The notes under the pieces: generated by a model
Told to the model about the DNA's origin: nothing
Database searches by the model: none
The model's input: the letters and a program-made list of their open reading frames with translations, nothing else
In this document: in pieces, positions 1-39,100 of the stretch
How the letters are laid out: each line of letters begins with the position of its first letter
Position numbering within the stretch: position 1 is the stretch's first letter
NCBI GenBank assembly: GCA_951406725.2
Contig: OX597824.1
Location: forward strand, 60,822,001 to 60,886,000
DNA length: 64,000 nucleotides
Source of the DNA: Octopus vulgaris
Lineage: Eukaryota
Direction: 5' to 3'
Position numbers and translations under genes: made by a program

Positions 1-113
1 ACACAAGTTACATGTCTTAGGACATATGACTGGAACATTGGAGTATTTAGCACAATATTCTTTTTTGTAATATTTTCCACACTGATAATGCTCTTTGCCT
101 CGAGAACAGTCCA
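1..113 (-). CDS. Module A exon 9, ShK-like, cut by the window edge ([38 protein letters not shown])
   Basis: tacag acceptor at 114-118; CPKTCxxC ShKT-type ending. Confidence 0.9.
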
Positions 114-3100
114 CTGTAAAAATCAAGAATTTGTTTCATAGAGAAGGCAAAACCTCACCTCTATCTCAGAAGTGGTATCATTTCAAATTTAGTAAGAAAG
201 TTCAAATTTAGTAAGAAAGTTCAATGAGAAATACAAAAAAAAATGTAGGTAGGGTCTCTTCAGGTGTGATAAATGCATATGTGACATAAATAACAAAAGA
301 GCTGGATATGGTGAAAGAGTAGTTGTTAGTATAAGGAAGGGGACAAAAAAGTTGGGGGAACATGTTCATTCTGATTCTTTGTGTAGAGTTAGACTTCAGA
401 AAGGAGGTGTGAGATGTGTGGTACCAAATGTTATGGAATAAGGACATGGACACTGAGTGTGGAAGATCTGCTTCAGAGATTGGAAAGAAATGACACATGC
501 ATGATGTATGGAATGTGTAACATTAATCCACATGAAAGATGGTGCACAGCTGAGTTGAGAATGTGTCTGGTGGTTGAAGAAACCAGCTGATGTATGCAGC
601 AGAGACAAATGTTCTAGTTCTAGTCAAGTGATATGAATGGATAATGACTTGTATACAAAAATGTAATGTGTACTGGTAGAAAATGATGATACAGGTAAGA
701 GAAGAATGAGGAAGATGTGGGAAATGTTAGTAAAACCAGTTCTTAAGATGTTTAGTCTAATGGATGCTTAATTGAAATAGTATTAAGCATCATACTAGCA
801 TCTATTCAGTCTACAATGGCAAAGAAAATCACATTGAAACAGTGATAATAAAAGTGACAAGTGGTGATAATGATGATTAGATATATTTTGCTTTAAATAT
901 CCATTCTAAGATATAGGGACTTATCAGTAGAATATAATAAGAAAATTTCTGGCGACTTCTTTAGTTTTTCTAAGAAATAATAACCTCACCGCCACTACCA
1001 CCACCACTGCCATCCCTCCTACTGTAGTATATATGAGGGACCAAAGATATCGCTTCAGTATATTAAATGTCTGAGATATCTAAGAGTTGTTTTTTGTAGA
1101 CAGCTAAGTTATTACTGTGAGCTTGTCAGAAAGAGAACCATTTAAGTAATCTGAGGTAGTTAGGTTATTTGATATACATGAAGTACATCAGGTAATCTGA
1201 TATTATAGCTAATATAAATGTTGATTACCAGTAGCTCATTAGTTATCAATGCCTTTTGGTATTAGTAGTCTTTCATATATCCCTATATTATTCAAGTATC
1301 TTTATTCTGTTTTCATCACCATCATTATTCTTTAATTTCTGCCTTCCATTTTGGCATGGGTTGAATGGTTTGACAGGAGCTGGCCAGGCAGAAGACGGCA
1401 CCAAACTTCTGTGTCTGTTTTGGCATGGCTTTTATGGTTCAATGCCCTTCCTAACACCAACCTCTTAGCAGATGGGACTGAGTGCTTTTTACATGGCAAG
1501 GTTAGTTTTGGCATGGTTTTTACAGCTGGATGGTTACCCTTCCAAATGCCAACCACTTCAGAGTGTGGACTGGATGCTTTTTATGTGGCAAAAGCACTGA
1601 CTGGGTCATCAAGTAACTTGCAAGAGAAAGATCCTTTGAGAAAACAGGGGGCATTGGAGGAGGTAATCTTGTGTCAGATGACGAAATGTTAGACTGTGAC
1701 AGTGATAGAAAGAGATGTCTTGCACTTAATGTCGACACAACAGTTATAACTAAAATAATTTGTCAGTCTGCCTCATGCTCCAGGTGGACAAAATCTGAGT
1801 GGCATTGCCCTGGAGGATGGTGAAGGAGACATGCTGGAATAGCCATTCTGACTCATGGGCTTGCACTTGTGGATAGCACCTCTGTCCTGATAACTATGAG
1901 CAGGGATGTAGTCCAGCGGGTCACCACTACCCCAAGCTCTACCATAAATCTGTCAGAGGGTGGCCACTACTTAGACATCTTGCCTTTCTTGGCATAATGA
2001 GTGACAAAACATGGGATTGGGTGGCCAATTGATTACCCAGTCTTGCTTTACATAGTTTAGATGAGGAAAGAGAGAGAGAGATAGTGAGAGAGAGACAGAC
2101 AGAAACAGAGAGAGAGAGAGAGAGAGAGAGAGAGAGAGAAAGAGAGAGAGAGAGGAGAGTGAGTGAGAGAGAGAGAGAGTGGGAGAGAGAGAGCAGGAGA
2201 GAGAGAGAGAGAGAGAGAGGGAGGAAAGACAAAAAGGAAAAGATAAAATATATTTACTTTCACATTGTGGTCCATGATAGATCTGGTTATGATAACATTT
2301 GCAATTACAACTATCACCAATCCTCGAACCACCATTCAGACAAACCTTTCCTTTACAATCTGAAAGTAAATGAGAAAGTTTTTGTGAATTAATATATTAC
2401 ATTACTGAATTATGTCAGAAATCAAATTTAAATTATAATGAATTTGTTAGGTATTGAGACATTGAAATCATTAGCACATAAGACATAATGCTTAGGAAAT
2501 TACTTAATTCAAGGTTGCAGAACTCTAAACACTAGTTTATATATTTCTTATTGAAGGACAAAGAAGTGTACTTTATAAAATATCTTCTCACCAATGAGTT
2601 TTGTAGGGCCTGTACATGATTTATATGGTCGGTTATAAGAGTAAGCACTGTTTCCTCTGAAAAATAAAAAACATTTAAAATAATTAATTTTCTGAAATTT
2701 GAAAGAAGGTAATATTCAGTATAGTAATATTCAGTATAAGACAATATCTTGTGATTTTCTATTTCATATACATGAAAAAAACCCACTTAAAATGTTATAC
2801 AAGAAAATAAGAAATTTCTCTCAGGTAGAAGGATCAGTTGGTTTAAAAGAACCACTAGAAGAATAAGTTGCTGTAATAGAAGTACCAGTTAATCCTACAG
2901 AGGAACCACATAATTTTGGGTTCAGTCCCACTACATGGCATGTTTAGCAAGTGTCTTCTACAATAGCCTCAAGCTTACCAAAGCCTTGTAAGTGGAATTG
3001 GTAGATGGAAAGAGAAAGAAGTCTGTTGTGTGTGTATGTGAGTATGGAGGTGCAAAGGCCCAGTGGCTAGGGCAGCAGACTCGCTGTCATAGGATTGCAG

Positions 3101-36100: not shown

Positions 36101-39100
36101 CTAATCAAGCAGTAACTGGGGCAAGGCACAACGGTCAGACGATAAATAATGACATAGGCATAGTAGGCATTCACTACCTCTGCCTGACCTTCTAGGAGCA
36201 ATTTCCTCTCTGTCCATTTCTGGGTAAGAGAGGTCACCATTTTCGTCACCTCTACTTGGAGGTCAGGACCAAACCAGATCCCGAGCAGTTTCACTGGTTC
36301 GTCAGTCAAGCGTCCGACGGCATCGATTTGCTTCTCCAGGTGCCCAGTCGCAATCCCACCGACTTGTCGGCATTGATCTTAGCCCCTACAAGTCCAATTT
36401 CGAAAGGGAGTCCTCTTAACTTTTCTAACTTCCGCAGCAGTGACTCGAGAGCCTGCACACACAGAAGAGGTGACAGCAGGCAGCCCTGACGGACCGAACG
36501 TGCGATACTAAACGGGTCCAATAGGTGGCCATTTACTGTGACCACAGAGCAGGGGCCACTGTGCATTGCAATAATAATAATAATAATAATAATAATAATA
36601 ATAATCATAATCATAATAATATACTTGTGTATACATATTATTTACATTGGATGGATATGTATCCTCATCTTGTTTGTTGTTACCACAGCGTTTCGGCTGA
36701 TTTACTCTCCAGTCTTCATCAGGTGTCCTGATAGAATTTTGAACCCGATCCTTGGTTCTTATTCCTTAGGTATTTTTTGCTGTTGTTATTATTATTATTA
36801 TTATTATTATTATTATTATTATTATTATTATTATTATTATTTATTCAAGGCACTCCATCAGTCTGGAGTAGTTTGGCCTTGCTGGCTGTCGGTGCTAAAT
36901 CGCTGTTGAAAACATATAGAATTTCAAGTGAAATAAATTCACCTATCTACAAAATATGAAATATTGCATTTCTAAATCTCTCAGAGAGAGTTATGCAGTA
37001 GCAGCACGATAAAGCGACGGGAGGTGCTTATCTCCCCTGTTAGAAAACTTAAGGACACAGAACGCATCTCTCATCACTTTATTGTGCTGCTAGTGCATAA
37101 CTCTCTCTGAGAGATTTAGAAATGCATTTCTAATTTTGTAGATCAGCGAATTTATTTCACTTGAAATTCTATAAGTTTTCTACAGCGATTTAGCACCGAC
37201 AGCTAGCAAGGCCAAACTACTCCAGACTGATGAAGGGCATCTACTCTGAAACTAGTCTATGATGCTGGCTTTGTTAGGTGGAGGTGCTTATCTCCCCTGT
37301 TGGAAAACAAGGACACAGAACGCTTGTGTCACGTAGCTACAAGAAAGGGTGTTTCTTGCGGCTAAATAGCAGTAGCATTCTTCCCTTTCCTGGGACTGTC
37401 ACATTAAGTTGGCAACAAACCATCACTTTATCGTGCTGCTACTGTGTATGGTTCTCTGAGAGATTTAGAAATGCAGTATTTCTAATTATATATATATAAT
37501 CCTAATGGTTAGAGTGTGGCACTCACAATTGCTAGATCGTGATTTTAGTTACTAGACCGGATGGTGCGTTTGTGTTCTTGAGCAAAACACTTTATCTCAC
37601 GTTTCACTGCGATCACTTTGATACTCGATGCGTGGCACTTGCTCAGACAACGTCAATTTAATGGGAGAGTCCATCAACATTTCATATCATATCATATCAT
37701 ATATATATATTATAATATATTATATCATATCATATTATATTATATTATATTATATTATATTATATTATATTATATTATATTATATTATATCGTGTGACCG
37801 TTTACTGTGTACATACTATTTTCGGTGAGATTGGAAAGTCAAAAGGTTTGTTGCTTTTGTCGAAGTCCAGAGGAGTTAGTTCCGGCATGGGCTGTGACAT
37901 AGCTAACAGATGACACAAGATTGGTTTATTTGAAATCAATGAAACAATTGTAAACTGAGCAATAAACACAATTTACTGACTCTATTCTTCAAAATTTCTT
38001 TTATTGTATAAAACTCGACGGATGTTTTGTGGCTTTTCCGGATTACTGCGAGTCCACCCTACACAACAACTTTCAGATAACCCCACCCCTATCCGTGGAA
38101 GTGCTTCATGAAACAAATATCTGGATTATATATCATAATTTACCAGTTGCATGCATACACACATGCAGTCAGAGAGACTGACAGACAGACATAGATTGAT
38201 AGATATAGGTATATATGCATATTTACTTTCTTGTGTATATCTACTCCTAAATATATCATTGAAACAATATATATTTGGTCATCTTGGAAGTGAATTACCA
38301 TAGTTTCTCCCCTTGTTGTTAACTACACTGATTTTACATACCAAAATCATATGATAAACCACCTTCACTTAATTATTTACTCAGATACTAACTCCATCAA
38401 TTAAAAAAATTTTAACTTTGTATAACGATGTGCACTTACCATTTTCATCATGTCACAGGCTGGTGGATCAACGTCTTTGCGATGTTTATTGTGTAAATCT
38501 ACAATAAGGTTTCTGTCTTTGTCTGTCATACCTAAACAATGAACAAAATATTTATAACACCCAATTCCAAGTTAGATATTTTTAAAATATGAAATGTTAA
38601 AAGTTTTTCACTTGGTAATATTGGAGTTTTACACATGATCGGTCAAGCAATATATGGCGAATGGTTGACGTTGTGTTTATAGCGCACTAGCTGAGGTAAT
38701 TTTTACTTGTCAAAGTAGGCGACATGATCAAACATATGGCAGGTTGAGTATGTGATAAGTCAGAAAAATTTCTGACTGAACTTCTCTGGTTTAAGTTCTA
38801 CTCAGGAATTTTTAAATGAATAGCATGTGACCTTTTGGTTTTCTCTTCTCTTAAATTCCGGCCTTCCTTTAGTATTCTTGTTGTTTTAGATCGATGTATA
38901 GATGTATGTATATATGTAAGTATATTGTAAAATGTTAATATGTATGTATAATATATAATACATATATTTAAAAAATATGTTAGTGTTATTTAATTTCTGA
39001 ACGGTTTATGTAGCCTGATTTCTTTATCCATCAGTTAGATAGAGATACGAGTAAAATAAATAATAAAGAAACGAAAATAAAACTTTGGAAATAGCAACGC

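Follow-up and report, generated by a model that had tools for sequence, protein, structure and literature searches.

Proteins of the CAP family occur widely in venoms, in immunity and in reproduction. In molluscs their function is described as unknown in the available part of PMC6409789, where the CAP-ShK type II proteins (CreCAP-ShK4-7 of Cumia/Colubraria reticulata, in a clade with Mr30 and Tex31 of Conus) are reported to have a CAP domain followed by EGF-like and non-canonical ShKT-like motifs. We found the same arrangement in a gene of Octopus vulgaris lying in a stretch of 64,000 nucleotides (contig OX597824.1 of GCA_951406725.2, positions 60,822,001 to 60,886,000), referred to here as the window. 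Whereas the CreCAP-ShK proteins have one CAP domain and 295-452 amino acids (PMC6409789, available part), in the octopus protein the CAP-EGF-ShK unit occurs six times, the repeats being separated by Ser/Thr-rich linkers and followed by a hydrophobic tail. We suggest, with a probability of about 0.5, that recent copying made two of its modules, A and B, alike, and that diversifying selection then changed mainly the loops of B; that selection in some form is behind the A/B differences seems to us probable.

A large part of this AT-rich animal DNA is duplicated in direct orientation (about 1-21,700 and 23,200-47,450 of the window), and both copies carry minus-strand exons with canonical splice sites. 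Joined together, the exons form a single open frame that takes in a third module (at 63.8 kb), then B and then A. P0001, the 1934-residue protein encoded by the window, was recovered via a search with one exon; B is its module 3 and A its module 4, and modules 1, 2, 5 and 6 (beyond the last exon of module 2, which is in the window) were compared as protein only. Pfam places six CAP domains (PF00188) in six stretches of P0001, with 403 bits against a gathering cut-off of 21.1. The modules have 253-255 residues each and 20 cysteines (22 in the last), in the order CAP, hinge, EGF-like stretch and six-cysteine ShK-like end. Pfam reported neither EGF nor ShK in P0001 at E<=1, and we use the labels EGF-like and ShK-like because of the cysteine spacing (8-8-9-3-2 in the last domain) and because the EGF/ShK part of B is 38-39% identical to CreCAP-ShK4 (BLAST, E about 1e-9). 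The CAP-ShK type II proteins are secreted and have a single CAP domain; the octopus protein departs from them in having six CAP modules and in its hydrophobic C-terminus. Among the 131 proteins with a match, 113 have one CAP module, 10 have two and three have three; four or six were seen only in products of this gene. The closest named proteins are those of Octopus bimaculoides, 82% identical to module 1 and 92% to module 6.

A preliminary description of this DNA had counted, in seven paired core exons of A and B, 28 codons that change the amino acid and only three that differ silently. Our recount over exons e1-e7 (229 codons) gave the same figures, with the same silent pairs (GAC/GAT, GGT/GGC and AAG/AAA) and the same amino acid changes per exon (0, 4, 7, 4, 1, 4 and 8). 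All of these minus-strand exons have canonical AG/GT ends, the last exon of A being truncated by the window edge. None of the cysteine codons is changed, and the "fixed disulfide scaffold" of that description is in our judgment right. Cysteine conservation was rejected as evidence of selection, being weak (P = 0.09 for 0 of 18 cysteines changed in a neutral simulation).

An average dN/dS masks the constrained sites, and a split of codons by conservation is the sharper test. Codons were classed by their conservation in 126 distant homologous modules, with the eight closest octopus sequences excluded, and a site below 50% conserved was called variable. Changed positions are less conserved than the others (median 0.25 vs 0.54, p 3e-5), with 23 of 117 variable codons changed as against five of 112 conserved ones (Fisher p 0.0005). 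Variable codons change more than introns predict and conserved codons less (p 0.005-0.047 over four cut-offs); at a cut of 0.6, three nucleotide differences were observed in the conserved class and 11.0 expected at the intron rate (p 0.005), and therefore B is not decaying. In maximum likelihood (ML) fits with two fixed classes, omega (dN/dS, the ratio of replacement to silent rates) at the variable sites is 3.5-4.3, with likelihood-ratio test (LRT) p values of 0.0095-0.025 in all six settings. When double-hit codons are counted once, the variable sites still exceed the silent ones (omega 3.1-3.8, p 0.005-0.016) and exceed average introns less clearly (p 0.012-0.064). Changes are densest in the ShK-like domain (8/38). 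Of the 15 in the CAP domain, 11 fall outside core helices and strands when placed on a model of the module-1 ortholog (p 0.027). Modules 2 and 5, a second pair, have five variable columns coinciding with A/B ones where 2.0 are expected (p 0.035-0.048).

Over the whole module the picture is less sharp. Site-corrected counts (32 replacement differences, Nd, and 4 silent ones, Sd) give an omega of 2.3-2.9 by counting (one-sided p 0.075-0.021 for kappa 1-3), ML gives 2.1-2.9 (LRT p 0.046 with equal codon frequencies), and under the intron mutation spectrum omega is 2.6 with a 95% confidence interval of 0.92-10. The positive-selection signature claimed in the preliminary description thus stands in part: a whole-module dN/dS above 1 is borderline (p 0.046-0.18), while omega above 1 at variable sites is supported. 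Its word "extreme" was too strong, as neutral drift alone yields about three replacement changes for every silent one; with a neutral silent share of 24.5%, 36 changes should include about 7.8 silent codons, and three or fewer have a probability of 0.034. We rejected clustered double changes as evidence of selection: there are five against 1.7 simulated (p 0.02), yet the introns cluster similarly, with adjacent double differences at 48/348 in introns and 6/36 in exons.

The adjacent introns, which had been called nearly identical, differ at 460 of 7110 aligned sites (6.5%), or at 348 of 6405 (5.4%) once three blocks of repeats and all sites above 19950 are removed. Divergence is strongly uneven: the 150-nucleotide flanks range from 2/300 different at e4 to 28/299 at e1 (heterogeneity chi2 216, 30 degrees of freedom). 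The least-diverged block, 5243-7655 with its partner at 30530-32970, has 14/226 exon and 46/2185 intron differences (p 0.0009, the block having been picked after viewing the data). Exon e1 (19587-19678 in A and 38440-38531 in B) differs at one of 92 bases between flanks that differ at 28/299, which may reflect either strong constraint or a short conversion tract. Gene conversion, which the preliminary description did not consider, can give the same ratio of replacement to silent changes.

Some history of the modules can be read from O. bimaculoides, where protein P0128 has a module X, a linker, a distant module Y, and then a downstream linker like that of A (11/88 different). A differs from X at 26/225 positions, from B at 27/225 and from Y at 95/243, and B differs from X at 38/225. 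As A stands in the slot of Y with an X-type sequence, it is likely to have arrived by replacement through unequal exchange, to the extent that the fragmentary O. bimaculoides annotation can be relied on. At the A/B differences, A agrees with X 17 times and B five times (p 0.017), with eight changes unique to B and two unique to A. By raw count, B agrees with Y at eight of the 22 A/B-differing sites where B departs from X, and an N-glycosylation sequon at one loop is present in B, Y and modules 2 and 5 and is missing from A and X. The B-Y matches and the sequon would fit either convergence or the retention of older states.

The latter possibility leads to a different account, that the A/B split predates the branching of O. 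bimaculoides, and that conversion erased most silent and intronic differences while selection kept the amino acid ones. It would also be selection for difference, working through keeping instead of fast substitution. The strongly patchy intron divergence, the near-equal A-X and A-B distances, the eight B-Y matches and the four-taxon protein patterns (four AX|BY and no BX|AY) agree with it, as do the states of modules 2 and 5, which are swapped between two assemblies. Against it, old tracts should bear linked silent and intronic differences, whereas divergence is lowest in the flanks of e2-e4; eight changes are found in B alone; and no B-like module was found among the O. bimaculoides proteins retrieved (the best 120 of 252 matches, from a fragmentary annotation). 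We regard this account as unlikely.

Module number and content vary between genomes. In another assembly the protein P0122 has four modules, one of them a chimera of a module-2 CAP domain and the EGF/ShK part of A, and its modules 2 and 5 mix the states of modules 2 and 5 of P0001. True variation in copy number could account for the four-module form, as could a collapse in the assembly or a skip in the annotation. Among the isoforms P0122 and P0125-P0127 the e3/e4 junction varies by single residues, which an interchange of near-identical modules would be expected to produce.

Returning to recent copying followed by diversifying selection on B, a number of points weigh against it. All of the selection tests draw on the same 36 A/B differences, the A/B ratio is largely owed to the few silent changes and so is suggestive and not extreme, and many of the amino acid changes are conservative. 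The whole-module ML test is non-significant under other codon frequency settings (LRT p 0.10 with F1x4, 0.18 with F3x4 and 0.09 with F61). The comparison with average introns, one of the checks proposed in the preliminary description, gave no significant difference: 27.4 replacement and 8.9 silent changes are expected at that rate, against 32 (p 0.21) and 4 (p 0.06) observed, and the replacement count is likewise unremarkable against local flanks (p 0.11-0.21). The excess at variable sites is gone when the most diverged (distal) intron class, at 9.1%, is the standard (p 0.5-0.85). The excess in exons e2-e4, which speaks for selection (18 differences where their own flanks predict 7.4-9.2, p 0.0007-0.007), is from a comparison picked post hoc, and loop enrichment across the whole core is non-significant (p 0.22). 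The A-B-X branching has a support of 0.305 in the tree of octopus modules, and the four-taxon patterns include five AB|XY beside the four AX|BY. As to the protein's location, the only 19-residue segment of P0001 above the hydropathy cut is the C-terminus, and a putative signal peptide was assessed by eye.

Much of this would be expected from relaxed constraint and chance, with a redundant B drifting at tolerant sites near the neutral rate and a silent count kept low by sampling or by constraint on silent sites, such as may come from splicing signals or from the RNA-editing structures of cephalopods. A replacement divergence near that of introns, a silent count below expectation, the lack of excess over the distal-intron rate and whole-module p values reaching 0.18 are all in keeping with it, and double differences as common in introns as in exons mean that the clustering needs no selection. 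On the other hand, variable sites exceed both the silent sites of the same exons and average introns, and in the 5243-7655 block exon divergence is three times that of introns. We think relaxation a somewhat unlikely explanation. The A/B observation is real, and we lean towards selection, of moderate strength where it acts on B, as its cause.

Differences between near-identical blocks may also be artefacts, either because A and B are one locus written twice or because the differences are consensus errors. The long near-identical blocks, and the two fewer modules in the other assembly's protein, fit this idea. Four of 24 listed sequencing runs were mapped, on 19500-32500 only; X1, X5 and X16 were taken as RNA by guess and have intron-skipping joints, and as the run sequences are contigs, they are evidence of presence and not of expression level or tissue. 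Two of the four mapped runs, X1 and X5, contain the B-to-A splice joint; they come from two studies and have intron-skipping joints at every junction in range, including those of B e7 with the linker (21684-23259) and of the linker with A e0 (20993-21639). The shorter side here spans 46 letters. At e0, letters of both the A and the B type are present. An A-type contig of X16 differs from B by 5, 4, 6 and 11, where the A/B counts are 5, 4, 6 and 10 plus a truncated end. DNA run X19 covers intron stretches specific to each copy, and the EGF/ShK part of A recurs in P0122. Taken together, these exclude consensus error, which had been named as a possible refutation, and we consider an artefact of either kind highly improbable.

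The e2 end in run X16 might have been an intermediate allele, which we rejected: A and B are mixed there in a 1:1 consensus (0.95 both predicted and observed), which likewise speaks against an artefact. In record 10 of X16 (window position 23259), an A-type contig continues past e7 and reaches a stop within three codons, not the next linker of P0001, at a depth of 19 and in one contig. It may represent a shorter protein that stops after module A and would be untethered. The donors following e7 of B (23255-23261) and of module 2 (63804-63810) would likewise lead to an in-frame stop if the intron were retained, and intron retention after e7 is a possible route to shorter secreted forms.

If diversifying selection on B is correct, events may have run as follows. 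An X-type module would have overwritten the slot of the very different module Y (the state in O. bimaculoides), giving A, which stayed near the ancestral sequence while B changed. The copying event would have left B redundant with A and, on this prediction, free for a new specificity, with purifying selection holding the scaffold while diversifying selection altered the loops and ShK-like domain of B, and hence the binding of the module. Family membership and the hydrophobic tail predict that the protein is exported and tethered at its C-terminus, and each module is predicted to offer a binding surface (the CAP cleft loops and the ShK-like domain) to an external partner. Unequal crossing-over or conversion presumably continues to shuffle the modules. 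It is tempting to imagine a tethered CAP-ShK array of variable copy number in an arms race, in which B was driven back toward the surface of Y after an X-type copy overwrote Y, so that a lost specificity re-evolved within one protein, but we hold this to be improbable.

CAP signature motifs take the forms GH[YF]TQ-V-W and Y-x-C-x-Y-x-P, and motifs of both types were found in A and B. The CAP cleft tetrad is His-Glu-Glu-His; two His and one Glu of it are present here, and in place of the Glu of the snake GEN stands a Gln, invariant in 65 relatives. In module 6 of P0001, outside the window, the GHYTQ motif lacks its catalytic-cleft His and there are two additional cysteines; this is also the module best conserved against O. 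bimaculoides (20/253 different), with module 1 at 46/255. An alpha-beta-alpha CAP fold is seen in the model of the module-1 ortholog P0006 (predicted local distance difference test, pLDDT, 86.5), which is 49% identical to B, the model being of the ortholog and not of A or B.

All exons of the gene are on the minus strand, and in module A run from e0 at 20916-20994, an N-terminal two-cysteine segment differing from that of B at 13 of 76 nucleotides without gaps, through e1, a CAP helix whose amino acids are identical to those of B, to e2 (11828-11918), e3 (6784-6920, with the GHYTQ-type signature) and e4 (5972-6060, the end of the CAP domain). The hinge (e5, 2592-2656), the EGF-like exon (e6, 2258-2359) and the truncated ShK-like six-cysteine exon (e7, 1-113) follow. 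The B-A linker exon, spliced to B e7 and A e0, is at 21640-21686. In module B, e0 (46278-46353) and e1 are followed by e2 (34445-34535), e3 (32070-32206; one of its seven amino acid differences is the extra N-glycosylation sequon), e4 (31260-31348), the hinge e5 (25629-25693), the EGF-like e6 (25295-25396) and the ShK-like e7 (23261-23377, with eight amino acid differences from A). A linker exon at 47367-47413 precedes module B, two Thr-rich linker exons lie at 52135-52209 and 53338-53394, and the linker exon after module 2 was placed by eye against P0001 at 62543-62599. The ShK-like e7 of module 2 (63810-63926) differs from that of B at 34 of 117 nucleotides and from that of A at 32 of 113.

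Two young LINE-type (long interspersed nuclear element) reverse transcriptase copies, at 13697-16500 on the plus strand and 41957-44753 on the minus strand, are 95.7% identical and are separate insertions in A and B introns; both have Pfam RVT_1, and the second has long open frames of 647, 302 and 332 amino acids. An older LINE-type copy is at 58100-60305 (minus strand). A PIF1-like helicase fragment at 50432-51403 (plus strand, Pfam E 4.5e-38) is probably a Helitron-type remnant, and its flanks at 49959-50404 match 17181-18048 in an intron of A. By eye we noted what may be a decayed intronless gene copy at about 56050-56510 (plus strand), presumably resembling elongin B, and a putative high-copy DNA-transposon remnant at 26100-27250 with very deep X19 cover. 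The window also has a 400-base (GTAT)n microsatellite of 102 copies at 48686-49091 and many (AAT)n arrays at retroelement ends.

Positive selection on cysteine-rich extracellular repeats is a familiar pattern, supported here by one sequence pair, and the larger finding is an array of six CAP-ShK modules that are being shuffled and of which one evolves fast. A and B, nearly identical but for 28 mostly loop residues, are a natural contrast for CAP-ShK binding. Our literature search, with subscription journals largely outside its coverage, found no study of this gene or of selection in a multi-CAP octopus protein, and none of five accession numbers searched was mentioned. For the CAP-ShK proteins, the available part of PMC6409789 reports no selection test, and the word "selection" is absent from its main text.

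By sequence and by fold, the best PDB matches are the cysteine-rich secretory proteins (CRISPs) of snake venoms (natrin, triflin, stecrisp and pseudechetoxin), with a Foldseek E of 1.6e-15 for the P0006 model against natrin. Like the octopus modules they have a disulfide scaffold, with a CAP domain and, at the C-terminus, a domain of six cysteines, but they are single-module and secreted and have no EGF-like insert, and the fold match is mainly to the CAP domain (TMq 0.43). In the abalone protein VERL, selection is reportedly repeat-specific. VERL is, as the octopus protein is predicted to be, an extracellular molluscan protein with tandem domain repeats, in which concerted evolution accompanies positive selection; it differs in its ZP-N fold, its 23 repeats and its known sperm ligand (PMC8830517, available part). 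The tandem, same-orientation ATP1A1 paralogs of Leptodactylus, with mostly amino acid differences amid homogenised sequence, are the model for retention against conversion; they are separate genes with 12 differences common across species and a known function (bioRxiv 10.1101/2020.08.04.234435, available part), whereas the octopus copies are modules of one protein, seen in one pair. The octopus gene would exemplify selection against homogenisation inside one protein.

The salivary-gland CAP proteins of coleoids belong to the same family and clade as the octopus protein (PMC7693380 and PMC4619613, available parts). An O. vulgaris gland protein group (eight peptides, 334 amino acids) in the available part of PMC7693380 shares 73.7% identity with the module-1 ortholog of O. 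bimaculoides, to which the start of P0001 is 71.7% identical. This level is about right for module 1, making the gland protein a candidate for it; a search with three peptides gave no matches. In the available part of PMC4619613, most sites of venom proteins from ancient lineages, coleoid CAP (its Fig 5) being shown among them, are reported to be under negative selection. The recent internal octopus copy appears to do the reverse at its variable sites, and the gene would exemplify rapid adaptation at the level of modules, in a family described as conserved among coleoids.

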